DNA of 64,000 nucleotides. Source: Dehalococcoidia bacterium (GTDB lineage: Bacteria; Chloroflexota; Dehalococcoidia; Bin125). Position 1 is the stretch's first letter, and the number at the start of each line of letters is the position of its first letter. The notes beneath the pieces were generated by a model. The model saw nothing but the letters and a program-made list of their open reading frames with translations, did not search any database and had not been told where the DNA came from. The stretch spans positions 1,190,099 to 1,254,098 of the forward strand of contig OZ253456.1 in assembly GCA_965261225.1 (NCBI GenBank), read 5' to 3'. The position numbers and the translations under genes are program-made. Below, in pieces: positions 3,283-58,613 of this stretch.

Positions 3283-3297
3283 TGTGTGAACAGGCCC
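3283..3297 (+). promoter_or_regulatory. 15-nt motif TGTGTGAACAGGCCC; the same 15-mer recurs at 24982-24996 and, as an inverted 12-mer, at 24559-24570
   Basis: Three identical occurrences of such a long motif in intergenic DNA are unlikely by chance. This copy is about 300 bp upstream of the Crp-family gene start and immediately precedes the nested-repeat element. Confidence 0.3.
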
Positions 3298-3326
3298 AAG
3301 TTGAGACCGATGCAACACCTTTGATC

Positions 3327-3727
3327 TGCATCTCCCCCCTTGCGGAGACCAATGCATAACTCCCCTTCTCCCCCCATGCGGGGGAGATGCCGAAGGCAGA
3401 GGGGGGGGCTCCCTATCGCAATGCCTATCTGGTCGTCGCCGGCGCCCTCCCACTGTCACTCCGTGACATCTCCCCCCGCAGGGAGACCTTTGAATAAGTC
3501 ACGCATGGGGAATCTCCCAGTCCCCGCCTCCGCGCGGGGACCCGCTCCGCTTCGCCCTGCTCTCGCCTGTTCATCGCTCCTTACCAGATATGCAACCGAC
3601 CCTTCGTCGCTCAGCCGGCGAGGAACGGGGGCAGGTCCCCGCGCGGAGGCGGGGACTGAGAACCGCAAGTGCCGGACTAATTCAAAGGTCTCCGCAGGGG
3701 GGGAGAGAGGAACTGAGAGTTATGCAT
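3327..3727. repeat. Roughly 400-bp intergenic element of nested GC-rich inverted repeats (possible MITE or structured RNA)
   Basis: Three copies of a 20-nt motif are present: TCTCCCCCCTTGCGGAGACC at 3331-3350 and 3469-3488 (direct) and 3687-3706 (inverted). There is a perfect 22-bp inverted-repeat pair, GTCCCCGCCTCCGCGCGGGGAC, at 3520-3541 and 3635-3656, 93 bp apart. A perfect hairpin tctcccccc-atgc-gggggaga sits at 3367-3387. An outer pair atgcataactc / gagttatgcat lies at 3352-3362 and 3717-3727. The only ORF over this region (3340-3939+) is low-complexity. Confidence 0.6.
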
Positions 3728-3733
3728 CACTCT

Positions 3734-15664: not shown

Positions 15665-15983
15665 CTCGGTCCAGGCTACCCACGCCGCTCAGCACACGCA
15701 GGCGGCTGGTCGTATCGGGACGGTCGTCCGAGCCGTTGGGCCAGATCACGAACTGCGGTCTGGATCCTACGACAGTTTCAGCCGCGAATCGAACGGCCAG
15801 CAGCACTACTTGGCTACTGCCGGTGGTGAACGAAACAGCATGGCGCGTGTTGCCGGTTGCGGAGTAAGCCTGCGCCGGATCGGAGGTCTGGCTCAGATTG
15901 CCGACCGCGTAGCTGGCGGTACTACCGACGATCATCAAAGGCAGACTGGTGACGCTGTCCGGGACATCCGCGTCATCGGTGTA

Positions 15984-23089: not shown

Positions 23090-23103
23090 ATCCGGGCACT
23101 CAG

Positions 23104-36700: not shown

Positions 36701-36902
36701 GTTGATGGCCACCCTGTTCGGAGTAATGCACAACGGCGCGGACTCGATGCGCGAGTTGAGCGCCGATCGCATTGAACAGATTCGCCAGCGCGGTGTAGTG
36801 CGATAGCTCCGGCGTTCCGACGAGGCTGACCTCTGCGATGGCGTCGAGGTACGCCTTGACCGCTTGCCTGAGTTCATTCACTGTGGTGACCCAGCTTCCC
36901 AA
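33756..36902 (-). CDS. Type IIL/IIG restriction-modification enzyme, MmeI-like (N-terminal PD-(D/E)XK nuclease, gamma-class N6-adenine methyltransferase, C-terminal target-recognition region)
   Basis: The N-terminus has D...EVK (HQPDLGFFS...GVVEVKGADADLDEL). The methyltransferase has the region VWYTPREVVRYMV, motif I VYVLDPCCGTGAFL and motif IV LGNPPYNGF. The length is 1048 aa with no helicase motifs. Confidence 0.75.
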   Translation of the reverse strand: MGSWVTTVNELRQAVKAYLDAIAEVSLVGTPELSHYTALANLFNAIGAQLAHRVRAVVHYSEQGGHQPDLGFFSSAGEALATGPDRGVVEVKGADADLDELIASEQVDTYWQKHKLVLVTNLREFALVGQDNSGSKATLERYSAANTVAAFDDLLKHRVTAANRHGVSLGEYLLRVMSHRSTISEPRDLARLLASYARDALQRVEQAEEEEDSLKPIRDSIEQALGMSFEDERGEEFFRSTLVQTLFYGIFAAWVLWARGGPSSKSADRFRWKDTRDYLRAPVLRMLFHQLTDPGRLERLALNDVLDWTEAALERVDREAFLKRFSEGEAVQYFYEPFLEAFDPKLRKDLGVWYTPREVVRYMVARVDRALRDDLGIAKGLADERVYVLDPCCGTGAFLVETLRRIAETEQSSGGGAAWAESVRQAAATRVFGFEIMPAPLVVSHLEIGLALEQMGAGLAPSQRAGVFLTNALTGWEPHTTKPLPFPELEQERKDATEVKQQRPILVVLGNPPYNGFPGVAEVDEERNLTDAYRTVKQVPGADLPKPQGQGLNDLYVRFFRMAERRIAEKTGQGIVCFISNYSWLDGLSFPGMRQRYLDAFDIVRIDNLNGDKYRTGKLTPEGDSDPSIFSTSDNPVGIQVGTAIATLVRKESHQSAEQIDWRELWGTSKSRELDESAGVDPSALYGSVRPMAGLGLPFSPVAVSDDWFEWPSLLDLFPAYFPGVKTSRDSLVVDINLDDLRKRISELVEAADSDFIRYAYRPFDVRWLYWSEKTGLLDRPRPEYRPHVFPGNLAIVSQQKPRREWSPAQVISTIGCLDLFDRSATCVPLYLRDDQFGEEVNGVKRTANLSERAQAYIESMSAEPEDLFHHVLATLHDPAYREANAGGLRMGWPRIPLPDSADALAESAARGRRLARLLDTESDVSDLLDTSIAVPTTTDGAPMQPNDFKISAGWGHFGTNQAVMPGQGKVVRRGDMVDVYLNDRAYWKDVPIEVWEYRLGGYQVLKKWLSYRESKVLGRGLEVSEVAWFSEVARRAAGITKISEADR

Positions 36903-41100: not shown

Positions 41101-42198
41101 ACTGAGTCCCCCGCCGCGGTCCACGATCACCGTGTAGACCTTCATGGTGCTGTCGTCCGGCGCCGTGACCTGCACGGTGAAGGTGTTGAGGCCGGGCGAG
41201 ACATCCCCATAAATCTCGTCTGCGTCCCCGGTGTCCTCTTGCGTGCTCCCGTCGGGACGGGTTACCACCAACTCGGCGCCGGCTTCGGTCGCCGTCGCAC
41301 TCAAGATAGCTACCGTGACTCCGCTGGGAACTCCGGCTGTGTACTGGGTCGTGTCCGGGGAGAATGCAGGGTCGAGGGGCGCGTTGTTCGTAATTACCAC
41401 ATCAGTTAAGTAGTCGACTCTGAGGCTTTTCAGCGTCGCATCGTCGGAGGCCATCACGGTCGCCTCCGACAGCTTGACCTCCACCGTATCCCCGACGCTC
41501 CAGCCCCTGCCGGTTTGAACGTCGAGAAATCCATCGCCCTCCGGATCGAGGAAATCGAAACTTCTGCTGCCCAGATCAAGGGTGTAGCCCGAGCCTGAGA
41601 GATCGCCGGTGTAGTACAACTCCAGATAAGTGCCATCGTGGGTGAGCTGGTTCACGGTGATGGGCGAGCCGTTGCGGGTGAATTCATTGGGCGTTAGCGC
41701 GCCATATGAAATGGAGAATGAAGTGGCGAACCCGGTAAAAGCGATTGAGGTTGGGTGCTGCCCGACCGTGAGCGTGGCGCACCAGAGGACGTCGCACTCC
41801 TGGGCCTGCGCCCGGGCCGGTAGGGCCAGGAGCGCGGCGAAGGCCACGAGCAGCAACACGGCCGATATCCGCCAACGTGCGAGAGAACCAACGCGGACGG
41901 ACCGGGCCAGCGCTGCGCCGAGGATGGTTCGGCTGGTCGCGCCGGACCGGGCCGCGTCAGCAGGCTCGGTTGGTGCGGACGCGCGAGGAAGAGCACCGCC
42001 GGACTTACGGGATGCCGCCGGAGGGTTGGCGGCGAGTGGCTCGTCCGCAATCGAAGATTCGTCCACAGCCGACGAGGAACGTTCACCTGACCGGCTGCGC
42101 CGCCAGCGGCTCAGCCCAGTCATGCCACGCCGCCGCCGCAGCGCGTCGAGAACGCGTGATTCGTAGGCGCTGTGCGGCTGCGCAGGCGCGTGCTTCAT
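38140..42198 (-). CDS. Giant adhesin-like surface protein (about 1350 aa) with an Arg-rich N-terminal leader plus hydrophobic anchor, cadherin-like beta-sandwich domains, an FN3 domain and Ig-like YQW repeats
   Basis: The listed ORF runs to 42327, but homology with the divergent paralog places the start at MKHAPAQ (42198). The leader is RWRRSRSGERSSS...RISAVLLLVAFAALLALPARAQAQ. Downstream features include the CDVLWCATLTVGQ motif, LKSLRVD...FSPD...YTA cadherin-like patterns, and three YSYQWIRNDGS...GATxSTY...VKVSFTDD repeats. Confidence 0.7.
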   Translation of the reverse strand: MKHAPAQPHSAYESRVLDALRRRRGMTGLSRWRRSRSGERSSSAVDESSIADEPLAANPPAASRKSGGALPRASAPTEPADAARSGATSRTILGAALARSVRVGSLARWRISAVLLLVAFAALLALPARAQAQECDVLWCATLTVGQHPTSIAFTGFATSFSISYGALTPNEFTRNGSPITVNQLTHDGTYLELYYTGDLSGSGYTLDLGSRSFDFLDPEGDGFLDVQTGRGWSVGDTVEVKLSEATVMASDDATLKSLRVDYLTDVVITNNAPLDPAFSPDTTQYTAGVPSGVTVAILSATATEAGAELVVTRPDGSTQEDTGDADEIYGDVSPGLNTFTVQVTAPDDSTMKVYTVIVDRGGGLSGRIENLPSSHDGSTAFSVTLKFNKDISDDSIDNLDGAVGIKNGTKSDLAAVGSSKRNFTMTITPSSGDPVRIRVRQTLDCSSSGHPICTAAGDALGQEIKRWVGKEDDARLSKLWLTTKGGIWLGGIGSDTYSYDGRHSFSELTMQAAPYATGATVVVTGPAGTFTAGDRWDGGATAKLDVPEGSTTWRVTVTSADGNETKTYRVTVRRGEGGGGPAADVRLKTLTVTPVNGTLLSFTPGFHLGTNAATFKIRVSSGTTAVTVSVEKNSPDPDVRLMRTETVRLDAIDEDPDLAGVQFDLEMDRFDLKLGRQNRYRSIWVIGPNARVEGHTAFDRRVYQLWITKAAASMATAAEPLMAAFENPPLSHDGSSAFTLRMAFSEDVEITPEDMRDHALTVFGGTVTGAEQVEGLKTLWDLTLQPSGNGPVSILTPLNRACTEVGALCTADGGTLTVAPALQIAGPPPPPVSAPDTPDRPVGTAVFVGGVDLEWNDVPGADSYDVQLFRNGQWMDLPGDGVEIAFYGAGGIISKLDPGSTHWFQVRARNAHSSSDWSDFRQVGSTNQSSLGKQARPDNVTASGAPVINGTAQVGESFTADTTGIEDGNGLDQVQFRFQWVTNDGSADADITGATDSTYILVAADEGKIVKVRVAFTDRGGYAESLTSAATDSVSFAVQQQVANSPATGALAISGAAQVGETLTADTSAIADADGLSNVSFSYQWIRNDGSSDSDITSATGSTYSLAADDEGRTIKVKVSFTDDADNGETLTSAATAAVDAAPNSPATAAPTIIGTAQVGETLTANTSGIADADGLVGATFTYQWVAGGSDIAGATGSAYTLTSSEQGQTIQVRVNFIDDRSNAESLTSAATDAVTAALIPLTVSLENNPTIHNGTDVFTFEIRFSEEVALSFRNLKFDAFTVTGGTVKKAQRVEKPSNIQWRITVQPHANGNVTIVLPVTNDCDDQGAICTGDGRKLSNGLEFTVVGPDG

Positions 42199-42351
42199 CC
42201 CAGCCTCCCGTTCCTCATCGACACGCATGCACGGGCTCGGACGCTGTGCACGCACGAGAAGCCGGACCACGCTTGAGCGGGCCCAGACGACTTCCGCCCG
42301 CGGAATCGCATCCTGCACGCGTGACACCGGCGAGGCGAGGCCCAGAGTTCC

Positions 42352-42512: not shown

Positions 42513-43646
42513 CTAGCCAAGTTGTCTGCGGCGGCCAACACAATATTGCGCCACTGCCCCGCGGGCGGCCGTCTCGTTGCGCGTGTAGAGGGCCGGCATG
42601 GCCGAGTCGCGCCAGCGCCCGGCGGTCATCAGGCTGGTCAGTTCGATCCCGGCGCGGGCCAGGTCCTGGGCCATGCCGACGCGCGGCGAGTGGCCGCTGA
42701 AGCCCGCGCCGAGGCCGGCCGCCGCCGCCGCCTGGCTGATCCGCTCGGCGATCTGATTGGGCCGCAAGGGGAAGAGGCGCTCGTCGCTGTCCGCTCCGCT
42801 GCGCAGTTGTTCAAGCGCAGCCATCGTCTCAGGCGAGATGTAGAGGATCGCGCCGGCCCCCTCGGCGTCCGTCTTCGAGTGCCGGATCAGCAGTCGTCCG
42901 GTGCCGTCGCGCATCAGGCTGATCAGGGCGATATCGAGGAGCCCGCGGTTGCGAGCGGTCTGAGGATATTCAGGCCGCCCGCCCCTGCCCAGGCGGGGCA
43001 TACAGGCCGTTGAGCGTATCTGGTCAAGGGCCGTGTCCGTGAGCGGTCTGGCTTGCTGTTGGCCGCGGCCGAGCTTGCGCCCGGCTCCACGCAAGGTGCG
43101 TTTGACCTCGTCCGAGCTGCAGGGGTCAAACGGTCCCGCGGCGCGGTGCACAAACGCGATCGCCGAAGCGGCGACCCGCAGCGTGGCTGGCTTGTGCTGC
43201 TGGCGTTCGATTCGTTCGGCGAGGTATGCCGCGACCTGAGCGGGTGCGGCCGGCAGCGGGCTGACGGCCTTGGCCTGCGCCCATTCGGCGAAACGGTTCC
43301 ATTGGCCGCGGTAGTTCTTGAGCGTGTTGGCGGGGAATTCGTGCTCCTGCACCGCTTGCAAATCATCGAGCTCGATTTCTGACAGTTCTGAAGCATCCCG
43401 GCCGAACGCACGCCTGGCCGGGGGTGGACCTGGGCCATCGTCGATCAGCCGACGGCGGTCTGGCGACTCGCCCGACGGCGACCACTTCGCGCTCAGCGGA
43501 GGGCTGACGGGCGACCGGCAGTCGAGCTGTGCGGCTCCCGGGGGCAAGTAGCCAGTCTGGTCAAGCACAAGGTTTGGCCGATTCTCCGCCGTTTGCGTCG
43601 GACGGTCGGGTTCCAGTTTGGAGACGTGAACGGTCTTTAGAAGCAT
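42513..43646 (-). CDS. Tyrosine-type site-specific recombinase (XerC/D and phage-integrase family)
   Basis: The C-terminal catalytic signature is HSPRVGMAQDLARAGIELTSLMTAGRWRDSAMPALYTRN (H-x-x-R, W and the nucleophile Tyr). The core-binding region is LQAVQEHEFPANTLKNYRGQWNRFAEWA. The gene lies entirely between the two 27-bp inverted repeats. Confidence 0.8.
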   Translation of the reverse strand: MLLKTVHVSKLEPDRPTQTAENRPNLVLDQTGYLPPGAAQLDCRSPVSPPLSAKWSPSGESPDRRRLIDDGPGPPPARRAFGRDASELSEIELDDLQAVQEHEFPANTLKNYRGQWNRFAEWAQAKAVSPLPAAPAQVAAYLAERIERQQHKPATLRVAASAIAFVHRAAGPFDPCSSDEVKRTLRGAGRKLGRGQQQARPLTDTALDQIRSTACMPRLGRGGRPEYPQTARNRGLLDIALISLMRDGTGRLLIRHSKTDAEGAGAILYISPETMAALEQLRSGADSDERLFPLRPNQIAERISQAAAAAGLGAGFSGHSPRVGMAQDLARAGIELTSLMTAGRWRDSAMPALYTRNETAARGAVAQYCVGRRRQLG

Positions 43647-43880: not shown

Positions 43881-44972
43881 ATGAAGAACTACCCTGCGCT
43901 GTCGCCCAGCGCCAGTGATTCGCGTCTGTTTGATGCGCAGCGGAGCCGTGGCATACCGCGGTTGAGCTGGTGGCGGCGCAGCCGGCCGGGCGGACGTTCC
44001 TCGTCGGGGGCGGACGAAGCTTCGATCTCGGACGAACCGCTCGCCGCCAACCTTCCGGCGGCATCCGCTGAGCCAGGTGCCGGGTCTGTTTCCGGCGCGT
44101 CCGCACCGACTGAGCCTGCCGCCGCAGCCCGGAACGGCGCTGCCCGGTTCGGCGCGACCAGCCGAACCATCCTCGGCGCCGCCCGTGCCCGGTCCGTCCG
44201 CGTTGGCGCTCTCGCAGGTTGGCGGATATCGGCCGTGCTGCTGCTCGTGGCCTTCGCCGCGCTCCTGGCCCTGCCGGCGCAGGCGCAAACGGCGGGCACG
44301 CTGGTCTCGAATCTGGAGCAGACCGACACTTCCGGGTCCACTTCGCAGCTGGCACAGGCCTTCGACACCGGCTCGAACGCCGCTGGTTACGGGTTGACCA
44401 GCGTCACTCTCAGACTGGCCGGGGCAGAGCAAAATCCTGGCAGAGGCGCCCTGGTACGAATCACGCCAGCGACCAGCAGCGGCCCGGACTTGAGCGACTC
44501 GACCAAGATCATCACGCTAACCACTCCGACGTTGACGACGGACGCCGACAATGTATTCACCGCGCCTGCCGGCGCCACGTTGGACGCGGACAGCACCTAC
44601 ATGGTCGTGGTCACGAGCGCTGACGGCACTGACGGTAATCGATTTCCTGTGGGGCGGACCCGATCAACCGGAACGGACAGCGACAGCGATCCCGAGTGGG
44701 ACATTGCCGATACCAGGTTCTTTAGAGACGACAACACAGATACCTGGTCTACAAGCAGCACCCTTCTCCAGTTCAAGATATCGGGCACCGCCAGCGTCGG
44801 CCCCACCGAGGTCCCCAGTGACTGGAGCCTGATCCCCACCGGCCTGACCACCGGCGACCAGTTCCGGCTGATCTTCCTCTCCTCGACCAAGCGCGACGGC
44901 GAGGCCACCGACATCGCGACCTACAACAGCTTCATCCAGACCCGCGCCGCGGCCGGCCACACCGACAGCTAG
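43881..44972 (+). CDS. Giant adhesin-like protein 2, N-terminal segment (Arg-rich leader plus anchor, VSNLEQTD...AQAFDTG N-domain); ends at an in-frame TAG (44970-44972)
   Basis: The leader MKNYPALSPSAS...RWRRSRPGGRSSS...RISAVLLLVAFAALLALPAQAQ is about 65% identical to the leader of the 38140-42198 protein. The same frame reopens after the TAG (45048-45410, IYWLNGAKVADDYADFYDEDWDEE...). Confidence 0.6.
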   Translation: MKNYPALSPSASDSRLFDAQRSRGIPRLSWWRRSRPGGRSSSGADEASISDEPLAANLPAASAEPGAGSVSGASAPTEPAAAARNGAARFGATSRTILGAARARSVRVGALAGWRISAVLLLVAFAALLALPAQAQTAGTLVSNLEQTDTSGSTSQLAQAFDTGSNAAGYGLTSVTLRLAGAEQNPGRGALVRITPATSSGPDLSDSTKIITLTTPTLTTDADNVFTAPAGATLDADSTYMVVVTSADGTDGNRFPVGRTRSTGTDSDSDPEWDIADTRFFRDDNTDTWSTSSTLLQFKISGTASVGPTEVPSDWSLIPTGLTTGDQFRLIFLSSTKRDGEATDIATYNSFIQTRAAAGHTDS

Positions 44973-45367: not shown

Positions 45368-48300
45368 ATGTACGGGCTCTCGGCGGTCTTCAAGGTGGCC
45401 GCGGTGGTGACCAACAGCGACCCGACGTTCGCGATGTCGACGGCGGACCGCGAGGTGGCCGAGAACACGGCGGCGGGCCAGAACGTCGGCGCCGTGCTGA
45501 CCGCCAGCGACAGCGACGGCGACACGCTGACCTACACGCTCGAAGGGACCGACTCAGCCTCCTTCGTCCTCGACACGACCACGACCGCCGGCTCGGCCCA
45601 GATCCAGACCAAGACGGGCGTGAGTTACGACCACGAGGTCAAGTCCAGCTACAGCGTCGTGGTCAAGGCCGACGACGCTGGCGGCGGAACCGCCGCCAGC
45701 GTCACGGTGTCGATCGCGATCACCGACGTGGACGAGGCCCCGGAGCGGCCGGCGGCGCCGGCGGTGACCGCGACGTCGGGATCGACCACCAGCCTGTCCG
45801 TGAGCTGGACCGAGCCGGCGACCACCGGTCCCGACATCGACGACTACGACCTGCGCTACCGCGAGGGCACCAGCGGCAACTGGAGCAACGGCCCGCAGAA
45901 CGTGACCGCCACGCTTGCCAGCATCGGCAGCCTCGACGCCGGGACCTCGTACCAGGTGCAGGTACGCGCCACCAACGACGAGGGCGACAGCAACTGGTCG
46001 CCCTCGGGCAGCGGCTCAACCACTGCGGAGGCGACGCCGACGGTGAGCATCTCGGCGGACAAGACCAGCGCGGTCTTCAAGCAAGACGGGATCAGCTACA
46101 CGCTGACGCGCAGCGGCTCGACGACCGGCGCCCTGACCGTCTCGGTCACGCTGACACAGACGAAGGATTTCCTGTTGGCGACGGAGCTCACGAAGACGGT
46201 GACGATCGCCGCGGGCCAGTCGACGAAGACCTTCACGGTCGCGGCCTCGAGCTTCCAGCATTTCGCGGTGGGAACCACGGTCGAGGGCGGAACCCTGACC
46301 GCGGCGGTGCAGGATGTCCTCGGCTACGACCTGGGGACGCCGTCCTCGGTCGCTGTGTCCATCGTCATCCACTCGATGATCGGGCTCGACCAGGCGTCCT
46401 ACACCGTCGGCGAGGCAGCCGGGACCCTCACCGTCAAGCTCACTGGGCGCACCAGCCCAGGCGCGCCGCAGCCGACTTCGAACACCAGCACTGTGGAGCT
46501 GACTCCGGTTGACCAGACCACCTCGTCAGGAGATTTCGACGCTTCTTTCATTGCATATCAGTTCACGCCCTCTCACTTCAGCTTGACCGGCGGAGTGTGG
46601 AAGGCGGAGGAATCGTTAGCTATCACGATCACGAACGACGATCTCGACGAGGACGACGAAACCTTCGATCTCGAAATCGAGTATCGAGTCGGGACCCAGC
46701 ACAGCCCGCTCGTGGATGCGTCCGGCAACTCCTGCGGGTCCAAGTGCACGGTGACGGTGACGATCACCGACGACGACACGGCGGGCGTCACGGTCTCGAA
46801 GTCGTCGCTGACGGTGACCGAGCAGGACACGACCGGCGACAGTTACACGGTGGTCCTCGACAGCCAGCCGACCGCGGATGTGACGATCTCCGTCGGCGGG
46901 CAGTCGGGCACGGACGTCACTGCGGCTCCGACTCCAATGACCTTCACGACCGTGAACTGGGCGACGCCGGTGACGGTGACGGTGACGGGCGACGACGATG
47001 CGGACACGACCAACGACATTGTCTCGCTGACCCACAACGCGGCGAGCGGCGACAGCGACTACCAGGGCATCACGATCGCCGGCCTGACGGTGTCGGTCAA
47101 CGACAACGACACCGCCCAGGTGACGGGGCTGATGGTCGAACCGGGCAACGGGCAACTGGTGGTGCAGTGGACGGCGGTCACGGGCGCGACGGGCTACCAG
47201 GTGCAGTGGAAGTCGGGCGGCCAGGGCTACAACAACAGCGGCCGGCGCGCCGTCATCGGTTCGGGTTCGACCACGAGCCACACGATCCCCAGCCTGAGCA
47301 ACGGCACCGAGTACACGGTGCGGGTCAGAGCGACGCGGACCGGCGCCAACGCCGGCGCGTATTCGTCGGAGGTGTTGGAGACGCCGGTGATGCCGACGGC
47401 GGCGGGCGTCACGGTCTCGAAGTCGTCGCTGACGCTGACCGAGCAGGACACGACCGGCGACACATATACGGTGGTCCTCGACCGCCTGCCGACGGCGAGT
47501 GTGACGGTGACGGTGGGAGGCCTGGGCAGCTCGGACGTCACCGCCAACCCGTCCAGCCTGACCTTTACGACCGTGAACTGGGCGACGCCGCAGATGGTGA
47601 CGGTGACGGCCGGCAACGATGCGGACACGACGAACGACACGGTCTCGCTGAGCCACAGCGCGATGAGCAGCGACAGCGCCTACCAGGGCATCACGATCGC
47701 CGGCCTGACGGTGACGGTCAACGACAACGACACCGCGCAGGTGACGGGGCTGATGGTCGAACCGGGCAACGCGCAACTGGCGGTGGAGTGGACGGCGGTC
47801 ACGGGCGCGACGGGCTACGAGCTGCAGTGGAAGTCGGGCGTCCAGAGCTACAACACCAGCGGCCGGCAGGCCACAATCAGCTCGGGTTCGACCACGAGCC
47901 ACACGATCCCCAGCCTGACCAACGGTACCGAATACACGGTACGGGTCAGAGCGACGCGGACCGGCGCCAACGCCGGCGCGTATTCGGTGGAGGTGTTGGA
48001 GACGCCGGTGATGCCGACCGCGGCGGGCGTCACGGTCTCGAAGTCGGCGCTGACGCTGACGGAGCAGGACACGACCGGCGACACGTACACCGTGGTCCTC
48101 AATACCCTGCCGACGGCGACTGTCACGGTGACGGTGGGAGGCCTGGGCAGTTCGGATCTGACCGCCAACCCGTCCAGCCTGACCTTCACGACCGTGAACT
48201 GGGCGACGGCTCAGACGGTGACGGTGACGGCCGGCAACGATGCGGACACGACGAACGACACGGTCTCGCTGAGCCACAGCGCGATGAGCGGCGACAGCGA

Positions 48301-51300
48301 CTACCAGGGCATCACGATCGCCGGCCTGACGGTGACGGTCAACGACAACGACACCGCGCAGGTGACGGGGCTGATGGTCGAACCGGGCAACGCGCAACTG
48401 GCGGTGCAGTGGACGGCGGTCACGGGCGCGACGGGCTACGAGCTGCAGTGGAAGTCGGGCGTCCAGAGCTACAACAACAGCCGGCGCGCCGTCATTAGTT
48501 CGGGTTCGACCACGAGCCACACGATCCCCAGCCTGAGCAACGGCACCGAGTACACGGTGCGGGTCAGAGCGACGCGGACCGGCGCCAACGCCGGCGCGTA
48601 TTCGTCGGAGGCGTTGGAGACGCCGGTGATGCCGACGGCGGCGGGCGTCACGGTCTCGAAGTCGTCGCTGACGGTGACCGAGCAGGACACGACCGGCGAC
48701 ACGTACACCGTGGTCCTCGACCGCCTGCCGACGGCGACTGTCACGGTGACGGTGGGCGGCCTGGGCAGTTCGGATCTGACCGCCAACCCGTCCAGCCTGA
48801 CCTTCACGACCGTGAACTGGGCGACGGCCCAGACGGTGACGGTGACGGCCGGCGACGATGCGGACACGACCAACGACACGGTCTCGCTGAGCCACAGCGC
48901 GATGAGCACTGACGGCGACTACCAGGGCATCACGATCGCCGGCCTGACGGTGACGGTGGCAGACAACGACACCGGCAACACCCCCGCCGAGGGCAAGCCG
49001 ACCATTTCGGGTCCGGCGCAGGCGGGTCGGACGCTGACGGCCTCGACGGCCGGCATCACCGACGCCGAGGGGCTGACGACGGTCAGCTACAGCTACCAGT
49101 GGCTCGCGTCGGGGACGGCTATCGGGGGCGCCACGAGTTCCACCTACAGCGTGAGCGCGAGCGTGCAGGGCGACAAGATCTCGGTCAGGCTGACCTTCGA
49201 CGACGATGAGGACAATCCCGAGACGCTGACCAGCAACGCGACCAACAACGCGGTGGTGCCCGCTGCGGTCACCTGTCCCACGGGCACGCTCTGGTGCTCC
49301 ACGCTGACGGCGGGGTACGGCACAGCAGATATGGACGGTGAGTTCTTTCTTGGGCTGGGCGCCGGCGTCGATACGCCCCCCGAGAGTTACGGCAGCCTCG
49401 ACGACGGCGCCTTCACGCACCTCGGGGCGCCCTACACGGTCACGCAGTTCTTCGCTGACGCGGACGGCTTGGCGGCGATCTTTGCCACCAGTCCGAACCT
49501 GCCCGACGACGGCGCCGGGCTGACGCTGCAGGTCCAGCAGGTCTCGGGCCAACGCGAGATCCCGCTGAGCGGAAAAGCGTACTCCAGCATCCCCTATTTG
49601 CCAGCGACCATAAAGGCCTGGCAGCTTAGAACTGCTCTCAGGTCCAGCGTTACTGATCCCTTGACCGCCCCGCTCCTGCGCGGTTTCGATCGAGCTTACG
49701 ATCCGTACGGAAGTCAAACCGACGAGGACACCGAGGTCACGGTCTGGCTGACCTACACCAACCGCCCTGCCGAGGGCGGCCCGACGATTTCCGGCAGGGC
49801 GCAGGTAGGCGAGACGCTGACGGCCGGCATGGGCGACATCGCCGACGCCGACGGGCTGCCGACCACGTTCCCGGGCGACTACAGCTTGCAGTGGCTGCGG
49901 GTGGACGCCGACGGCGTCTCGAACGAGACGCCCATCGGCGCCGACGCCCTGACCTACACGCCGCTGGCGGTGGATCTGGGCAAGAAGCTCAGGGTGCAGG
50001 TGAGTTTCAGCGACGGCGGCGGCGGCAGCGAGACGCTGACCAGCGACGCCTACCCGTCCAGCGGCACGATCACCGACGACTCCGCGGCGGGCGTCACGGT
50101 CTCGAAGTTGGCGCTGACGGTGACGGAGGAGGACTCCTCCGGCGACACCTACACGGTGGTCCTCAATACCCAGCCGACCGCGAGTGTGACGGTGACGGTG
50201 GGAGGCCTGGGCAGCTCGGATCTGACCGCCACCCCGGCCAGCCTGACGTTTACGACCGTGAACTGGCAGACGGCCCAGACGGTGACGGTGACGGCCGGCT
50301 CCGATACGGACCTGACGGACGACACGGTCGCGCTGAGCCACAGCGCGGCGAGCAGCGACAGCGCCTACCAGGGCATCACGATCGCCGGCCTGACGGTGAC
50401 GGTGGCAGACAACGACGACCCGCCGCCGCCGCCGCCGGGGGTACGGGCCCTCGTCTCGAACCTCTACGAGACTCCCGCCTCCACCGGCACTGACTTTGAG
50501 ACGGTGGCGCAGCCCTTCACCACCGGCAACAACCCGGACGGCTACGTACTGACGAGCGTGGAGTTGCGGGCGGACGATACGACGGACGACACGCGCTTCC
50601 GCGTGCAGATCGTGACGCTCGACGGTGACGGCGAGCCGTCCGCCTTGCTGTATACGCTGAGCAACCCGGCCAGCATCGACGACGGACCCCTGACGTTCAC
50701 GGCGCCGGAGAGCGCGAACCTCGCTGCCGACACGAGCTATGCGGTCCAGGTGGTGATCAGCAGCGCCAACGGCGGCCCCAATCCCGGGGCCACGCTCGAT
50801 GTGACCCCCTCGTGGAACGAGGACCTCGCGCTGTACGGCTGGAGCATCGCCAACACCCGGTTCAAACGCTCCAGCGATACGGATCCCTGGAGCAGCAGCT
50901 TCACCCGCCTGGTCCAGCTGAGGATCAGAGGCGCGTTCTACATCGGACCCTCCAACAATGCAACGCTGGCGGCGCTGACGCTGGCCGACGCCGCGGACGA
51001 CAGCGCCATCGCGCTGAACGAGAGCGTCGCGGCGGGCACGACAGCCTATACGGCGGAGGTGGAGGACGGGGTCGAGACGATCACCATCAATGCAGAGACG
51101 GCCGACGACGGGGCAACCGTGGCGTTCCTCGACGGCAGCGGCGCGGCGCTCGCCGATGCGGACGCGACCGCGGACGGCTGGCAGGTCCAGCTGGGCGCGA
51201 GCGCGACCACCATCCAGGTGACGGTGACGGCCGAAGACGCCAGCACCCGGACCTACACCGTGACGCTGGTCGTGATCGACACCAGCGACGCGACGCTGCA

Positions 51301-53500
51301 GTCGCTCAGTCTGAGCGAGGTCGCGCTGAGTCGCACGTTCTCGCCTGACGTCACTTCGTACACGGCGAGCGTGGCGGACAGCGTCCTATCCACGACCGTG
51401 ACGGCGAACCCGGCTCAGCCCGAGGCCACGGCGGTGGTCAGGTTGGACGGCGTCGAGGACAGCGACGGCATTGTCGAGTTGGAGGAGGACACGACCTCGT
51501 TCAGCATCAGTGTCGTGGTGACCGCGCCCAACCGCACGAACACGCGGACCTACAGCGTCGCCGTCAACCGGGGCAGCGTCGCCGTCACCGGGACAACAGG
51601 CGGCGGCGGTGGCGGCGGCGGCGGCGCGCCGCCGGCGGCGGTCCCCTCCGAGGCCGACTTCGACTGGAACGTGACCCGCGACATCGAGTCGCTGGACCCC
51701 GACCACGACGCGCCGACCGACATCTGGTCGGACGGCCGGACGTTGTGGGTCCTGCAGAACGCGTCGGCGGGCGCCGACGCCGTGTTCGCCTACGAGTCGG
51801 ACAGCGGTGAGCGACAGGCGGAGCGCGAGTTCGAACTCGACCGGCGCAACCGCTTCGCGCACGGCCTCTGGTCCGACGGCGCGACCGTCTGGGTATCCGA
51901 TAGCGGTCAGGACACGCTCTTCGCCTACGAGCTCGGCAGCGGCGAGCGGCTCGAGGCGCGCGACATCGAACTGGCCGAAGACAACCGCGACCCACGCGGC
52001 GTCTGGTCGGACGGCGAGACGATCTACGTGCTCGACAGCGTCCAGGACGCGATCTTCGCCTACGACCTCGAATCGGGCGAGTTGCTGGCCGAGTACCCGC
52101 TGGACACGCTCAACCAGAGCCCGCGCGGGATCTGGTCGGACGGCGTCACGATCTGGGTCTCGGACGACGGCGCCAAGCGCATCTTCGCCTACCGGATCGA
52201 AGGCGGCGTGCTGGTCCGCTACGAGGCTGAGGAGTTCACGTTCCGCTCGCTGCTCAAGGCCGGCAACGGCGACGCGCGCGGGATCTGGTCGGACGGCGAT
52301 GTGATCTTCGTCGCGGACGAACAGGACGACAAGCTCTACAGCTACAACCTGCCCGACGCGATCAACGCGAACCTGGCGGCGCTCAGCTTGAGCGATGTCG
52401 AGATCGGCGCGTTCTCGCCGCTGCGCACCAGCTACGAGGCCGCAATCGGCGCCGCCACGCAGACCACGGTGTCGGCGCAGCCCGTGCGTGAGGACGCGAG
52501 CGTCAGCATCGTTCCGGCCGACGCGGACCCGGCGGACGGACACCAGGTCGCGTTCGCCGGTCTGGACGAGATCGCGGTCACCGTGACCTCACCCGACGGC
52601 AGCCGGACCCGTGTCTATCGCGTCAGCCTCGAACCAGGGCTAACCCCAGTCGACCAGACGCCGCCGGCGTCCGACGAGACTCCGCCGCAACCAGCGGACG
52701 CCGGCGGCGAGTCCAGCAGTGAGCCCAGCAGCGACGAGACGGCGGTTGAGGTGACCAGCGAGGTGCGGATCACGGTGCGCAATGCGCCGGACGGCCGGGT
52801 CGAGTTCGCACTACAGCAGCGCGCCGCCGATGGGAGTTGGGGCGAACGGCTGTTGCCGCGCGGCCGCTTCCTGGCGGCCGATGCGGCGCTCGGACGCTGG
52901 CTGTTCAGCACCCCGGTCGCCATCACGGTCGGCGGCGAGATCCTGGAGCTGCGGATCGGCGCCCGCCGTCTTGAGGACGGCCGGGTCGAGTTCGCACTAC
53001 AGCGCCGGACCGCGGACGGCTCCTGGAGCGGGCGGCTGCTGCCCAGCGCCCGCTATCTCCCGGCCGGGACCGAGGCCGGGCGCTGGCTGGCCAGCAGCGC
53101 CCTCGACGTCGACAGCGCCGGCAGCCTCAACGTGCGCATCGCCGCACGGCGGCTGGACGGCGGCCGGGTCGAGTTCGCCCTGCAGCAACAATCGGCGGAC
53201 GGCGCCTGGGGCGAACGCAACCTGCCCAGCGGCCGCTTCCTGCCGGTCGGAACTGAGGTCGGACGCTGGCTGGCCAGCAGCGCCGTCAACGTTGGCGAGG
53301 CCGCCGCCGGCGCAGTCGTACGCATCGCCGCACGGCGGGCGGCCGACGACCGGGTCGAGTTCGCACTGCAGCAACAATCGGCGGACGGGTCCTGGGGCGA
53401 GCGCCATCCGCCCAGCAGCCGCTTCCTGCCGGTTGAGGCCGAGATCGGACGCTGGCTGGCCAGCAGCGCCCTCGCCGTGTCGCTCGCGGACGCGCCATGA
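45368..53500 (+). CDS. Giant adhesin-like protein 2, main body (2710 aa): cadherin repeats, FN3 domains, five or more copies of an Ig-like SLTFTTVNWAT...VTVTAGxDADTTNDTVSLSH module alternating with FN3, YQW repeats, (Gly)9 linker, GIWSDG beta-propeller, cadherin-like beta-sandwich domain, four C-terminal RIAARRL...GRWLASS repeats
   Basis: The reading frame is +2 relative to the 43881 segment. The frame is open upstream of the first ATG back to about 45280, so the frameshift lies near 45290-45370, where there is a homopolymer-rich stretch (gacaaaaaccgcccc). The repeat modules are near-identical at the DNA level (47380-48960). Confidence 0.7.
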   Translation: MYGLSAVFKVAAVVTNSDPTFAMSTADREVAENTAAGQNVGAVLTASDSDGDTLTYTLEGTDSASFVLDTTTTAGSAQIQTKTGVSYDHEVKSSYSVVVKADDAGGGTAASVTVSIAITDVDEAPERPAAPAVTATSGSTTSLSVSWTEPATTGPDIDDYDLRYREGTSGNWSNGPQNVTATLASIGSLDAGTSYQVQVRATNDEGDSNWSPSGSGSTTAEATPTVSISADKTSAVFKQDGISYTLTRSGSTTGALTVSVTLTQTKDFLLATELTKTVTIAAGQSTKTFTVAASSFQHFAVGTTVEGGTLTAAVQDVLGYDLGTPSSVAVSIVIHSMIGLDQASYTVGEAAGTLTVKLTGRTSPGAPQPTSNTSTVELTPVDQTTSSGDFDASFIAYQFTPSHFSLTGGVWKAEESLAITITNDDLDEDDETFDLEIEYRVGTQHSPLVDASGNSCGSKCTVTVTITDDDTAGVTVSKSSLTVTEQDTTGDSYTVVLDSQPTADVTISVGGQSGTDVTAAPTPMTFTTVNWATPVTVTVTGDDDADTTNDIVSLTHNAASGDSDYQGITIAGLTVSVNDNDTAQVTGLMVEPGNGQLVVQWTAVTGATGYQVQWKSGGQGYNNSGRRAVIGSGSTTSHTIPSLSNGTEYTVRVRATRTGANAGAYSSEVLETPVMPTAAGVTVSKSSLTLTEQDTTGDTYTVVLDRLPTASVTVTVGGLGSSDVTANPSSLTFTTVNWATPQMVTVTAGNDADTTNDTVSLSHSAMSSDSAYQGITIAGLTVTVNDNDTAQVTGLMVEPGNAQLAVEWTAVTGATGYELQWKSGVQSYNTSGRQATISSGSTTSHTIPSLTNGTEYTVRVRATRTGANAGAYSVEVLETPVMPTAAGVTVSKSALTLTEQDTTGDTYTVVLNTLPTATVTVTVGGLGSSDLTANPSSLTFTTVNWATAQTVTVTAGNDADTTNDTVSLSHSAMSGDSDYQGITIAGLTVTVNDNDTAQVTGLMVEPGNAQLAVQWTAVTGATGYELQWKSGVQSYNNSRRAVISSGSTTSHTIPSLSNGTEYTVRVRATRTGANAGAYSSEALETPVMPTAAGVTVSKSSLTVTEQDTTGDTYTVVLDRLPTATVTVTVGGLGSSDLTANPSSLTFTTVNWATAQTVTVTAGDDADTTNDTVSLSHSAMSTDGDYQGITIAGLTVTVADNDTGNTPAEGKPTISGPAQAGRTLTASTAGITDAEGLTTVSYSYQWLASGTAIGGATSSTYSVSASVQGDKISVRLTFDDDEDNPETLTSNATNNAVVPAAVTCPTGTLWCSTLTAGYGTADMDGEFFLGLGAGVDTPPESYGSLDDGAFTHLGAPYTVTQFFADADGLAAIFATSPNLPDDGAGLTLQVQQVSGQREIPLSGKAYSSIPYLPATIKAWQLRTALRSSVTDPLTAPLLRGFDRAYDPYGSQTDEDTEVTVWLTYTNRPAEGGPTISGRAQVGETLTAGMGDIADADGLPTTFPGDYSLQWLRVDADGVSNETPIGADALTYTPLAVDLGKKLRVQVSFSDGGGGSETLTSDAYPSSGTITDDSAAGVTVSKLALTVTEEDSSGDTYTVVLNTQPTASVTVTVGGLGSSDLTATPASLTFTTVNWQTAQTVTVTAGSDTDLTDDTVALSHSAASSDSAYQGITIAGLTVTVADNDDPPPPPPGVRALVSNLYETPASTGTDFETVAQPFTTGNNPDGYVLTSVELRADDTTDDTRFRVQIVTLDGDGEPSALLYTLSNPASIDDGPLTFTAPESANLAADTSYAVQVVISSANGGPNPGATLDVTPSWNEDLALYGWSIANTRFKRSSDTDPWSSSFTRLVQLRIRGAFYIGPSNNATLAALTLADAADDSAIALNESVAAGTTAYTAEVEDGVETITINAETADDGATVAFLDGSGAALADADATADGWQVQLGASATTIQVTVTAEDASTRTYTVTLVVIDTSDATLQSLSLSEVALSRTFSPDVTSYTASVADSVLSTTVTANPAQPEATAVVRLDGVEDSDGIVELEEDTTSFSISVVVTAPNRTNTRTYSVAVNRGSVAVTGTTGGGGGGGGGAPPAAVPSEADFDWNVTRDIESLDPDHDAPTDIWSDGRTLWVLQNASAGADAVFAYESDSGERQAEREFELDRRNRFAHGLWSDGATVWVSDSGQDTLFAYELGSGERLEARDIELAEDNRDPRGVWSDGETIYVLDSVQDAIFAYDLESGELLAEYPLDTLNQSPRGIWSDGVTIWVSDDGAKRIFAYRIEGGVLVRYEAEEFTFRSLLKAGNGDARGIWSDGDVIFVADEQDDKLYSYNLPDAINANLAALSLSDVEIGAFSPLRTSYEAAIGAATQTTVSAQPVREDASVSIVPADADPADGHQVAFAGLDEIAVTVTSPDGSRTRVYRVSLEPGLTPVDQTPPASDETPPQPADAGGESSSEPSSDETAVEVTSEVRITVRNAPDGRVEFALQQRAADGSWGERLLPRGRFLAADAALGRWLFSTPVAITVGGEILELRIGARRLEDGRVEFALQRRTADGSWSGRLLPSARYLPAGTEAGRWLASSALDVDSAGSLNVRIAARRLDGGRVEFALQQQSADGAWGERNLPSGRFLPVGTEVGRWLASSAVNVGEAAAGAVVRIAARRAADDRVEFALQQQSADGSWGERHPPSSRFLPVEAEIGRWLASSALAVSLADAP

Positions 53501-54115: not shown

Positions 54116-56473
54116 TCAACCGGCTGCAGCAAGTCCGGCGCCTTGCTCCTGTTCCAGCGCCCACTCGAACAACGATGGCGAGGCTGGTTGCGCCTGGCGC
54201 CCGCGCCGCTTCGACGGCTGAGGCGGCTCAGCCATGAACTCGGTCCAACTGAACAGTGACGGCTGCGCTTGCGGCAATTTGTGATGGCCGCCGCAGGGAA
54301 CCAGTTCCAGTACCGATTCCTCATGGCGGTCGCTGGGGATCGTCACGACCAGCGGTCGCGCCTCCGGTTCGACGCGCTCCCAGCCGTCATCGACCAGCAA
54401 CGCGTCGGCGTCGGCCGCGACCTGCTGCGCCTGCTGGAAGATGTCTTCGACCGGCTCGTCGTCGGTCTCGCCGGCGATCAGCTTGCGCGCCAGGGCCATC
54501 ATCAGGTCGTCGCCGCTGTCGCCGTAGGCGGCCAGCCCGTCTTCGGGCAGGTCGCCCTCGACCGCCAGCGAGGATTGCAGCTTCTGCGCGACCAGCTTGA
54601 GCGCGTCGGCCTGCAGCGTCGAGCGGTAGGCCATGAACACGACCTTGACCGGCTCGCTCTGGCCGATTCGCCACGAGCGCCTGGAGGCCTGGCGCATCGT
54701 GTAGACCGAGTAGTCGGTCTCGTACCAGCAGATCGTCGGAAAGGCGATCAGGTCGAGTCCGGTCTGGACCAGCCTGGGGTGGCAGATCAGGACATCGACG
54801 CCTTCCTTGACCCGCTTCGCGACCCAGGCCTCGCGCTGCTTGGGTTCAACCCGGTCGGCCTTCATCACTGCGGTGCGGAAGCCGTGCCGGGTGAGCAACG
54901 ACTCCAGCCGGCCGGTGATGTCCCGCGTTCCGGTGTGGGTGGCGTAGACCAGCACCCGCCTTCCGGCCATCCGCTCCTTGGCTACCAGATCGATCAGCTG
55001 CTGCTCCTTGGGATAGACGCGCTCCTCGTCGAGCGGCGGCAGTTGCACGATCAAGTCGCCGGAGTCGGGGTCGAACACGGACTCGCCCCTGGTGCAACCC
55101 TCGGGATAGGCCAGTAGCGCCTGCAGGTAGGTCGAGAGCAGCCGCGCCGAGCCGCGCTCGATCGCCTGCAGCAGGGCCCGCTTGAGGTTCGTCGAGAGGA
55201 TGCGATAGGCCGAAGCCTGAGAGAATCCGCTGTCGTCCTCTTCGGTGTCCAAGCTCGTCACCTGGATCTGCTCCTCGTAGGCCGGCAGTCCCGAGGCGAC
55301 ATCAGCGAGGCGCAGGAACAGCGAGTGGCCGATGATGTGGAACAGCGCCGCCGGCGCCATCCCCGGCCGCTCCTTGACCTGCTTGCGGTAGCCGCGGCGG
55401 CGCGACTGCGAGCCGTCCTCAGTCGGATCGTCGTCACGGTCGTTGCGCACCCGCTGCTCGAGGAAGCCGTAACGCTCGACCCACTTGTGCTCCTCGGCGC
55501 GGCCGAACTCCGAGCGGATCTCCGGCGAGAAGCGGTAGAGCAGGTGGAACAGGGTTGAGGCGTGGCCGCCCATCAGGGTTCCCGAGAGGGCCAGCGACTT
55601 GCCGCAGGCGTCGGCCAGGATGCCGGCCGAGACGCCCTGCGCGGAGCCGCGACCCTTGTGTTCGTGCACTTCGTCCACGATCAGCAGGTCGAAGTAGCCG
55701 CGCATGCGCTGCTTGACGTAGTCGGCCAGGGGGTACTTGCGCGGGCCCCGGCCGGGCGACCGGCGAGCCATCAGACCGGCGTTGTAATCGGTCGTCACGT
55801 TCTGCACCGGACGCGCCTCGGCCGTCCACAAGGGCGTCCCGCACTTGGGGCACTTGTGACGCTTCTTGTTCAGCGCCGTGTGCGAGACGGGGACGCCTTC
55901 GCCATCCACGATCTGCGTGGTGCAGTCGGGACAGGCCGGGGTCATGACGAACGCGCCGGTCTGCTCGTCGCGTACGGGCAGGCCGTCCTCATCGGTGAGC
56001 CGGCGCATCCAGTAGGCGGGCCGGAAGCGGTGGCCCAACTTGGCCCGCGAGTGCGACATGACCACGTACTGGGGGCCGGAACCCTCCTGGCGGCGCAGTG
56101 CTTCGAGGTCGGTGATGCTGTCGGCGATGCCCGTGCGGACCAGCGGGATGGTCTCCTCGATCTCGCGCTGCCACTTGCCGACCAGGTGCGGCGGACAGAG
56201 CACCAGCACGCGGCGGAAGCCGGCCAGCTGCGCGGCGGCGATGCCGATGAACGTCTTGCCCACGCCCATTTCGCCGACGACGGTCGTGCCGCGCTGCTCG
56301 GTCAGGCTCAGCGCGGCGCCGCGGATCACGGTCTCCTGGGCGCCCATCGGTTGGCGCTTGAGCGGCGGCATCGGGCGGTCGTCCGCCGCCGGTCGGTACC
56401 TGGGTGGGTAGCTGTGGACGATCCGCTTGGTGATCGCCTCGCGGTAGGTGTCGATGAACTCTGAGAGGTTCAT
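54116..56473 (-). CDS. SNF2-family helicase with an internal zinc ribbon (phage/ICE-type)
   Basis: Walker A is GEMGVGKTFIGIAAA, DExH is LLIVDEVHEHKG, helicase motif VI is QASRRSWRIGQSEPVKVVFM, and the zinc ribbon is CPDCTTQIV...CPKCGTPLW. Confidence 0.8.
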   Translation of the reverse strand: MNLSEFIDTYREAITKRIVHSYPPRYRPAADDRPMPPLKRQPMGAQETVIRGAALSLTEQRGTTVVGEMGVGKTFIGIAAAQLAGFRRVLVLCPPHLVGKWQREIEETIPLVRTGIADSITDLEALRRQEGSGPQYVVMSHSRAKLGHRFRPAYWMRRLTDEDGLPVRDEQTGAFVMTPACPDCTTQIVDGEGVPVSHTALNKKRHKCPKCGTPLWTAEARPVQNVTTDYNAGLMARRSPGRGPRKYPLADYVKQRMRGYFDLLIVDEVHEHKGRGSAQGVSAGILADACGKSLALSGTLMGGHASTLFHLLYRFSPEIRSEFGRAEEHKWVERYGFLEQRVRNDRDDDPTEDGSQSRRRGYRKQVKERPGMAPAALFHIIGHSLFLRLADVASGLPAYEEQIQVTSLDTEEDDSGFSQASAYRILSTNLKRALLQAIERGSARLLSTYLQALLAYPEGCTRGESVFDPDSGDLIVQLPPLDEERVYPKEQQLIDLVAKERMAGRRVLVYATHTGTRDITGRLESLLTRHGFRTAVMKADRVEPKQREAWVAKRVKEGVDVLICHPRLVQTGLDLIAFPTICWYETDYSVYTMRQASRRSWRIGQSEPVKVVFMAYRSTLQADALKLVAQKLQSSLAVEGDLPEDGLAAYGDSGDDLMMALARKLIAGETDDEPVEDIFQQAQQVAADADALLVDDGWERVEPEARPLVVTIPSDRHEESVLELVPCGGHHKLPQAQPSLFSWTEFMAEPPQPSKRRGRQAQPASPSLFEWALEQEQGAGLAAAG

Positions 56474-57584: not shown

Positions 57585-58613
57585 TTACGCCTCGATCCGT
57601 TCGATCCGGCCCGTGTCGAGGTCGAGCGTGACCACGCTGGTGCAGAGTTGCTCGCGGTAGACGTCGTGCGTCTCGCCCTCCTCGACCAGGACCATCTCCT
57701 TCGTCGTGCGTCCCTTGACGAGGACGCGCGATTCGGGCGTTTCCAGTTCGAGGTTGTCGAGGAAGCCGGCCGCGACCAGCATCGCCAGGTGTCCCTTGCG
57801 CAGCGGCATCAACGGGCGCGTGGAGCGGTCGCTGGGCGGCCAGAACGCGTCCGTGATCTCCTCCTGGGTCCAGAGACCGCGCGCGCGTGCCTCGGCGACC
57901 GCCTTCTGGAAGTCGATCACCCGAGTCGTGAACATCGCCGCTCCGGGCGGCGAGTGCCCCACGTCGTAGACGGGTTGCAGGTCCTGACGCAGCGGCGTCA
58001 GCTCGTCGATACTCCCGAGCAAGTCGTTCATCGCCCGAGCGTCAGGTCGCGGATGTTCCTTGCGCAGACCCATGACCACGACCTGGTTGAACTGCTCGAT
58101 CTCGGGCTCGGGGAACGCCCAGGCCCGGACGCGGGCGTAGTTCGTGGTCAGGAACCGCGCCGAGGTCGCGATCTGCGCACGCGGGATGATGTAGACGAGC
58201 ACGCCCGAGGGCTCCAGGTAGCGGGTGCAGTGGGTCAGGAACGCGTGCTCGACCCGCTTGTCTTCGCGGTCGTGGTCGTAGGGCGGGTTCAACCAGAGCA
58301 GATTGAACGTGCGGTTGGCGATCGAACAGCGGAAGAGGTCGCTGGCCAGCGCGTGGTCGAGCTGTTCCGCCGCCTGCTGCGCGCGCTCGGTCTGCAGTTC
58401 GACGCCGTAGGTCTCAACCGTCATGCTGCGCTTGATCGAATCGGCCAGCTGCCGCAGGGCGTCGCCCGGGCCGCAGCAGGGGTCGAGCAGTCGGACGATC
58501 TGGTCGCGGTTGCGGCTGTAGCGGATCGGCGCCATCAGCAGCGAGCGGATGTAGTCGACTACGCGCGGCGGCGTGGGGTAGTAGCCGCCTTTGGCTTGTC
58601 CGGCGAGTCTCAT
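57585..58613 (-). CDS. SAM-dependent DNA methyltransferase (N6-adenine/N4-cytosine type, NPPY motif); no adjacent restriction partner
   Basis: Motif I is VRLLDPCCGPGDAL and motif IV is LLWLNPPYDHD. It sits in a phage-like gene block with no cognate endonuclease nearby. Confidence 0.75.
   Translation of the reverse strand: MRLAGQAKGGYYPTPPRVVDYIRSLLMAPIRYSRNRDQIVRLLDPCCGPGDALRQLADSIKRSMTVETYGVELQTERAQQAAEQLDHALASDLFRCSIANRTFNLLWLNPPYDHDREDKRVEHAFLTHCTRYLEPSGVLVYIIPRAQIATSARFLTTNYARVRAWAFPEPEIEQFNQVVVMGLRKEHPRPDARAMNDLLGSIDELTPLRQDLQPVYDVGHSPPGAAMFTTRVIDFQKAVAEARARGLWTQEEITDAFWPPSDRSTRPLMPLRKGHLAMLVAAGFLDNLELETPESRVLVKGRTTKEMVLVEEGETHDVYREQLCTSVVTLDLDTGRIERIEA

Follow-up and report, generated by a model that had tools for sequence, protein, structure and literature searches.

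A 55-residue tandem repeat shared by two giant open reading frames of a Dehalococcoidia bacterium: a candidate new domain family predicted to fold in pairs

Introduction

Bacteria without an outer membrane lose the proteins they secrete unless these are tethered. Surface-layer homology (SLH; PF00395) domains occur as tandem units of ~55 amino acids (aa) at the N- or C-terminus of many secreted proteins of such bacteria, and anchor them non-covalently, their conserved Arg and aromatic residues binding an anionic polymer of the wall. LysM, SH3b, GW, and CWB2 wall-binding repeats are small repeated modules as well, often basic, that retain enzymes and adhesins at the surface. Dockerins are short, internally duplicated modules, Ca-binding and helical, which serve many passengers by addressing them to a cohesin partner and not by catalysis. 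Here, we describe a repeat that closes two long open reading frames (ORFs), called A and B, in a 64,000-nucleotide stretch of the genome of a Dehalococcoidia bacterium (contig OZ253456.1, positions 1,190,099 to 1,254,098 of the forward strand; hereafter the window). Dehalococcoidia, and the Acidimicrobiia in which we also find the repeat, are generally regarded as having no outer membrane.

Like SLH, the repeat combines a small unit size, a tandem layout, a flexible position in the protein, promiscuity, and a basic character. Unlike SLH, it is predicted to be all-beta and not helical, and it comes in pairs and not in triplets. It shares with LysM, SH3b, GW, and CWB2 the small repeated format on enzymes and adhesins, and with dockerins the duplicated short module carried by many passengers; in contrast to dockerins, its predicted fold is beta, and our analysis found no candidate partner. 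An S-layer domain of Sulfolobus SlaA (7zcx) and C2-type beta-sandwiches also rank among the closest known systems, although the SlaA match falls below the usual significance level. A sequence-only reading of the window had noticed the C-terminal module common to both ORFs and had suggested that its repeat attaches proteins to the cell envelope or sorts them.

Results

A shared C-terminal module ends in the repeat

ORFs A and B are encoded on opposite strands (Table 1). Their C-terminal parts align with 285/565 identities (50%) and 522 bits in BLASTP, and the translations bear out the common module order that the sequence-only reading had proposed. In both, a poly-Gly run is followed by five WSDG blades, a Cadherin-like domain (PF12733, above its gathering score in each ORF), and tandem repeats, which are preceded by an acidic linker and of which the last ends 3-5 residues before the stop codon. 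The order is shared as proposed, but B alone places a Big_9 Ig domain ahead of the repeats, after the Cadherin-like domain. The module of A had been taken to begin at position 51598, which is off the reading frame by one base; 51599 is the first base of the Gly run.

A profile hidden Markov model (HMM) built from the six units of the window recovers just four copies in A and just two in B, with i-Evalues of 1e-29 to 1e-32, and a search of the six-frame translation with the same HMM finds no further unit elsewhere in the window. Of the earlier count of four copies in A and two or three in B, the four and the two hold and the third in B does not. In addition, the unit is longer than the ~45 aa first estimated, having a core of 55 aa and a period of 61-62 aa. 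At the DNA level, the tandem repeat has a period of 186 nt and 2.7 copies (52976-53473). The six units are 45-75% identical to one another in pairwise comparison, and all of them match the family profile significantly and possess R2, E14, W26, R35, W46, L47, and S49 (unit numbering). In the family, R2, R12, E14, F15, Q18, R20, W26, R29, L31, P32, R35, F37, P38, R45, W46, L47, and S49 are conserved in at least 74%, and mostly more than 85%, of the tabulated units. Each unit thus carries six conserved Arg (R2, R12, R20, R29, R35, R45), two conserved Trp (W26, W46), and one invariant Glu (E14), and both units of a pair display the identical conservation pattern. The pair is strongly basic, with a median isoelectric point (pI) of 11.3 and a net charge of +5 (pI 9.2-11.3 for the pairs of the window). 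Outside the repeat pairs, A and B have a pI of 4.1 and 4.3, respectively.

Table 1. Positions in the window of ORFs A and B, their C-terminal domains, and related ORFs
Feature	Position	Strand	Residues (aa)	Remarks
ORF A	45368-53500	+		2710 aa; one of the window's long ORFs
A poly-Gly linker	51599-51625	+	2078-2086	9 Gly
A five-bladed beta-propeller	51665-52369	+	2100-2334	five WSDG blades
A Cadherin-like beta-sandwich PF12733	52376-52627	+	2337-2420	29.2 bits, gathering score 24.2
A acidic Pro/Ser/Glu-rich linker	52628-52762	+		from translation
Repeat unit A1	52763-52927	+	2466-2520	unit HMM
Repeat unit A2	52949-53113	+	2528-2582	unit HMM
Repeat unit A3	53132-53296	+	2589-2643	unit HMM; modeled with A4 as a single compact domain
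Repeat unit A4	53318-53482	+	2651-2705	unit HMM; modeled with A3
A stop codon	53498-53500	+		
ORF B	10623-13754	-		1043 aa; one of the window's long ORFs
B poly-Gly linker	12324-12359	-	466-477	12 Gly
B five-bladed propeller	11580-12284	-	491-725	by alignment to A
B Cadherin-like beta-sandwich PF12733	11313-11576	-		34.4 bits, gathering score 24.2
B Big_9 bacterial Ig domain	11025-11294	-		29.3 bits, cut-off 23.6; no counterpart in A
Repeat unit B1	10821-10985	-	924-978	unit HMM
Repeat unit B2	10635-10799	-	986-1040	unit HMM
Probable 5' piece of gene A	43881-44972	+		signal peptide (..LLALPAQAQT); 'VSNL..' domain also repeated within A
Probable 5' pieces of gene B	13757-17612	-		two ORFs, as follows
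ORF upstream of B	15987-17612	-		signal peptide and 'VSNL..' domain
ORF upstream of B	13757-15664	-		three cadherin domains; abuts the ATG of B
Third cadherin-like giant ORF	38143-42327	-		1395 aa; two Cadherin-like PF12733 and Ig-like domains; lacks propeller and terminal repeats

The propeller that the two ORFs share consists of five blade repeats closing one propeller. Lactonase (PF10282) passes its cut-off of 21.7 bits on the propeller of B (25.8 bits) but not on that of A (17.2 bits), and the SGL score is under the cut-off in both. A Pfam scan gives no glutaminyl-cyclase match on either propeller, and the identity to the five-bladed propellers of bacterial glutaminyl cyclase and of the YjiK type is only 13-14%. 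A Gly run is present at the matching place in B and in three other giant homologues, P0128 (4152 aa), P0129 (2493 aa), and P0164 (3217 aa). These three have the Gly run, the propeller, and four terminal repeats in the same order as in the window, which indicates that the module is conserved; the repeat is thus not a peculiarity absent from homologous adhesins. In A, the DNA encoding the Gly run belongs to a microsatellite-like (GGC)n tract of 14.7 copies (51599-51641, + strand), whose length could vary by slippage.

The repeat matches no named domain

Profile scans of A and B against Pfam-A and NCBIfam return no family for the repeat, and 48 family members scanned one by one yield only scattered matches at chance level. 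None of these sequences, A and B included, has an SLH profile match. Searching the PDB sequences with a profile of the pair gives no match, even at an expect value (E) of 10 or below. In the NCBI records, carriers are labeled 'hypothetical protein' or take the name of a passenger domain, and in the literature on sponge symbionts and eukaryote-like proteins we found no description of the repeat. The profile search that had been put forward as a check of the sequence-only reading therefore agrees with its view that the repeat has no named domain. Judged from these comparisons, the 55-residue repeat is an undescribed domain family.

The family is large. Searching 1.84 billion proteins with the pair profile, we obtained 1603 clusters (counted as 50% identity representatives) at E≤1e-3 and 1153 at E≤1e-10; a word-indexed search gave 544 matches. 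The domain anatomy was counted in the 120 best homologues and in 127 further cluster representatives.

Two units form one predicted domain

The copy numbers in these two sets are dominated by pairs. Two copies occur in 113 of the 120 best homologues, three in 6, and four in 1, with none having one or five; among the 127 representatives, 110 have two copies, 11 have four, 3 have three, 2 have one, and 1 has five. We modeled A3-A4 (124 aa) with AlphaFold from a 48-sequence alignment of pairs, the structure prediction of a two-repeat unit having been suggested together with the sequence-only reading. The model has a predicted local distance difference test (pLDDT) score of 96.2 and a predicted template modeling (pTM) score of 0.88, and shows one compact body made of beta strands only. 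In each unit, a long beta-hairpin precedes three to four short strands. According to our modeling, neighboring units are folded jointly into a single compact domain that is all-beta and strongly basic. Because the copy-number counts and the A3-A4 model agree in this, we regard the pair as the structural and functional unit. The fold of the modeled pair is apparently new, with no close solved relative.

The position of the repeat in A and B is the less common one. Of the 120 best homologues, 92 carry the repeats at the N-terminus, 20 consist of little else in their mature form, and 8 carry them at the C-terminus. In the 127 representatives, the corresponding numbers are 107, 8, and 9, and the repeats are internal in 3 more. 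A hydrophobic, signal-like segment lies directly upstream of the repeats in 94 of the 107 N-terminal cases. The repeat is therefore mainly an N-terminal module that follows a signal peptide, and the argument which the sequence-only reading drew from its C-terminal position does not extend to the family.

A short subfamily of ~50 aa units lacks the Trp26 loop and has the consensus GRIxARxLADGRxEFGFxPxxGERxLPxxRxFPAxxxVxRWLRSS. It is found at the C-terminus of RCC1-like proteins and in tandem gene arrays (three ORFs at locus L018, and loci L019 and L027), and a search with this query retrieves unnamed metagenome proteins only.

Passengers and carriers

The passenger domains are diverse. Among 86 representatives, RCC1 occurs 16 times, leucine-rich repeats (LRR) 9 times, trypsin-like domains 8 times, CAP 3 times, and PD40 twice, whereas ankyrin, VanY, PGA_cap, CARDB, PPC, and SLH are each found once. 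Single-unit versions are inserted between an N-terminal hydrophobic segment and ABC-type Peripla_BP_4 solute-binding proteins, Cu/Zn superoxide dismutase (SOD), or a metallo-beta-lactamase fold. Single-unit carriers are seen in Dehalococcoidia metagenome-assembled genomes (MAGs) at loci L024, L026, L030, L031, and L033, and at L022, where three solute-binding paralogues stand in tandem (1649-5329). Tandem gene arrays of repeat carriers are thus present at L018 and L022.

We scanned genomes, one per GTDB species, with a pattern-based search for the consensus sequence, which yielded at least 39 loci. Among the matches listed, all confirmed loci belong to MAGs labeled Dehalococcoidia/Chloroflexota or Acidimicrobiia/Acidimicrobiales, and the carriers include 'Candidatus Poriferisocius', a genus of Acidimicrobiia, and bins of the SB06xx series. 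We rejected weak scan matches in Acidoferrum (L038) and Pontibacter (L039), which the unit HMM did not bear out. A bin from the SB06xx naming series, IRC_PAM_SB0661_bin_34, is a Chloroflexota symbiont of the sponge Ircinia ramosa (PMC11706023). The majority of the protein matches come from unlabeled ENA metagenome assemblies. An association of the repeat carriers with sponges is well indicated, while exclusivity would go beyond what a pattern-limited scan can say. The carrier genes are scattered in their genomes.

Genes A and B appear interrupted

The sequence-only reading spoke of two giant proteins, but neither ORF is complete. A and B look like the 3' portions of larger genes that stops or frameshifts have broken up, with probable 5' pieces lying upstream (Table 1). 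The ORF upstream of A stops at an in-frame TAG, and coding-like sequence continues in that frame to ~45410, overlapping the start of A in another frame; the read-through junction contains no Pfam family. Protein A was not found on record as a called gene. The sole public contig found with B bears the name 'ctg46824_2x_l', suggestive of low coverage; given this name, an assembly error is as likely as real pseudogenization to explain the breaks. Within A, residues 470-1700 (inside 45368-51598, + strand) comprise several near-identical long modules, in which a ~110-aa unnamed domain starting 'AAGVTVSKSSLT..' is followed by fn3, and A also holds two copies of a 'PTISG.AQ.G.TLTA' domain. The long internal repeats of A could favor recombination or misassembly.

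The adhesin loci sit in island-like surroundings. Mobile-element and defense genes, all on the - strand, are located at 29308-30948, 33759-36902, 42516-43646, 54119-56473, and 57588-58613; the set includes a large serine recombinase, a Type ISP restriction-modification protein, a tyrosine integrase, a ResIII/Helicase_C helicase, and a DUF6094 methyltransferase. The window contains no tRNA. A 721-aa ORF runs antisense to the third cadherin-like ORF. Between the A and B loci, a gene for a bifunctional ATP-sulfurylase/APS-kinase, which serves PAPS synthesis (18884-20671, -), and a Sulfotransfer_3 sulfotransferase gene (21827-23182, -) lie near each other.

Discussion

Our data suggest that the repeat is most likely an addressing or binding module rather than a catalytic domain or a sorting signal. 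We infer such behavior because the repeat is exported, is autonomous as a pair, is independent of position, and is attached to many unrelated extracellular passengers or stands alone. By analogy to known anchoring modules, we tentatively propose, at a little less than an even chance, that the pair is a portable, non-covalent surface-retention module acting at the producer's own envelope. The repeat domain would be exported with its carrier by the Sec pathway, and the pair, as a portable non-catalytic binding module, would then tether the secreted carrier to an anionic component of the cell envelope. Candidate ligands are glycans of the wall or the S-layer, polymers bearing sulfate or phosphate groups, and membrane head groups; a sulfated surface molecule is conceivable for so basic a repeat. 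In A and B, the repeats would be the C-terminal foot, nearest the cell, of a long acidic stalk built from fn3, cadherin, and Ig-like domains, which would present the five-bladed propeller and other domains outward.

Several observations argue for surface retention. The upstream pieces of A and B have signal peptides with AxA-type sites, and in the translations of A and B, read by eye, neither an LPXTG-like motif nor a C-terminal hydrophobic segment is evident. With no other evident anchor in these two proteins, the repeat is the candidate for retaining them. In addition, some passengers, namely solute-binding proteins, SOD, VanY, and the metallo-beta-lactamase fold, work at the cell surface in other bacteria, and the basic charge of the pair suits anionic envelope components. 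The position independence and promiscuity of the repeat, as in known anchoring modules, point in the same direction, and so does the carriers' presumed lack of an outer membrane, which would leave untethered secreted proteins to be lost. The envelope attachment that the sequence-only reading put forward is therefore plausible. It fits the extracytoplasmic location, the tandem copies, the promiscuous fusion, and the positive charge on otherwise acidic proteins, although attachment itself is reached through the analogy just described. The sorting function named alongside it is hard to reconcile with a family that is N-terminal in its majority.

Other points weigh against retention at the producer's envelope. 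The proposed function rests on analogy. The carriers fall into two phyla whose envelopes may differ, and a ligand of the shared habitat could explain this distribution better than a lineage-specific wall polymer. Many passengers are of eukaryote-like kinds (ankyrin, LRR, RCC1), for which action on the host is the usual assumption. SLH accompanies the repeat in one family member, so that another anchor is possible there, and where the repeat is fused to solute-binding proteins, the hydrophobic segment at the N-terminus could do the anchoring. Finally, in 39 loci of ~6 kb each, no conserved neighboring gene that would point to a ligand pathway is found around the carriers.

The alternatives share much of this evidence. 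The repeat pair may be a lectin-like module that binds an animal polyanion, such as the sulfated glycans of the sponge matrix, or the surface of host cells, and thereby addresses effectors and adhesins to the host. We consider this possible but unlikely. The carriers come from two unrelated phyla and include bins from Ircinia ramosa as well as 'Candidatus Poriferisocius', RCC1, LRR, ankyrin, and CAP are frequent partners, small secreted forms composed of a signal peptide and the pair are common (20/120), and the conserved Arg and Trp together with the high pI would suit sulfated glycans. However, Cu/Zn SOD, a VanY peptidase, and solute-binding proteins are among the passengers as well and work at the bacterial surface, A and B would be left without an evident cell anchor, and the restriction to this habitat is unproven, given a pattern-based scan with at least 39 loci and protein matches drawn mostly from unlabeled assemblies. 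A bolder form, to which we give somewhat less credence again, holds that the pair is a new-fold address tag, spread horizontally among unrelated sponge symbionts, that brings eukaryote-like effectors (ankyrin, LRR, RCC1, CAP, and proteases) and giant adhesins to the animal through a host polyanion or cell surface. If true, the tag would be a route for delivering or targeting symbiosis factors in bacteria that lack classical injection systems.

Docking between proteins, in which the pair binds a surface receptor protein or oligomerizes and so organizes its passengers on a scaffold or lattice as dockerins or S-layer proteins do, seems improbable to us. A duplicated short module on many unrelated passengers recalls dockerins, single-unit versions could pair between chains, and the tandem gene arrays of carriers (L018, L022) would be in keeping with it. 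Yet there is neither a candidate receptor nor a conserved neighboring gene in the 39 loci, the extreme positive charge and the conserved Arg and Trp are more what one would expect of a module that binds glycans or polyanions, and the SlaA match stays below the usual significance. Recognition of the repeat as a terminal signal by a dedicated export or sortase-like system is very improbable. The extreme C-terminal repeats of A, B, P0128, P0129, and P0164 would agree with such a signal, but established C-terminal sorting domains (among them LPXTG, PEP-CTERM, and the type IX secretion C-terminal domain) are, to our knowledge, bound strictly to one position, whereas our repeat mostly follows a Sec-type signal peptide at the N-terminus (92/120 and 107/127), is sometimes internal, and varies from 1 to 5 copies; moreover, the 39 loci contain no conserved neighboring machinery. 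We reject, as almost certainly wrong, the idea that the units are divergent QW repeats of prenyltransferases or squalene-hopene cyclases, which are ~45 aa long, have a Q...G.W motif, and build an alpha/alpha-barrel. The sole recurring weak signal in our scans is of this kind: across A2-A4, PF13243 (E 0.0074, 15.8 bits) and also TIGR01787 (E 4e-5, 22.4 bits) match below threshold, driven by 'ALQQxxxDGSWG', which resembles the QW motif. These scores are far under the cut-offs of 26.1 and 322.7 bits, and even a weak match appears in only 2 of 48 family members. In addition, the confident model (pLDDT 96) is all-beta with no helices in the units, and two or four units are too few to complete an alpha/alpha barrel.

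Retention of secreted proteins at the producer's surface is thus the function we favor for the repeat pair. What is new here is a domain family whose fold is apparently new as well, whereas its job, that of a portable module binding a surface or a ligand, would be of a known kind. As a candidate new Pfam family, the repeat would annotate thousands of 'hypothetical proteins', and its confidently predicted fold without a close solved relative makes it a good target for structure determination.

Sponge symbionts are known to be rich in eukaryote-like proteins, and the repeat gives an experimental handle on the question of how these are displayed or delivered, above all in lineages presumed to be without an outer membrane. 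One compact module opens or ends proteins in ~1600 clusters, among them ankyrin, LRR, RCC1, protease, CAP, adhesin, solute-binding, and SOD proteins. A small, easily expressed domain could therefore reveal the destination and the ligand of this whole set of proteins.

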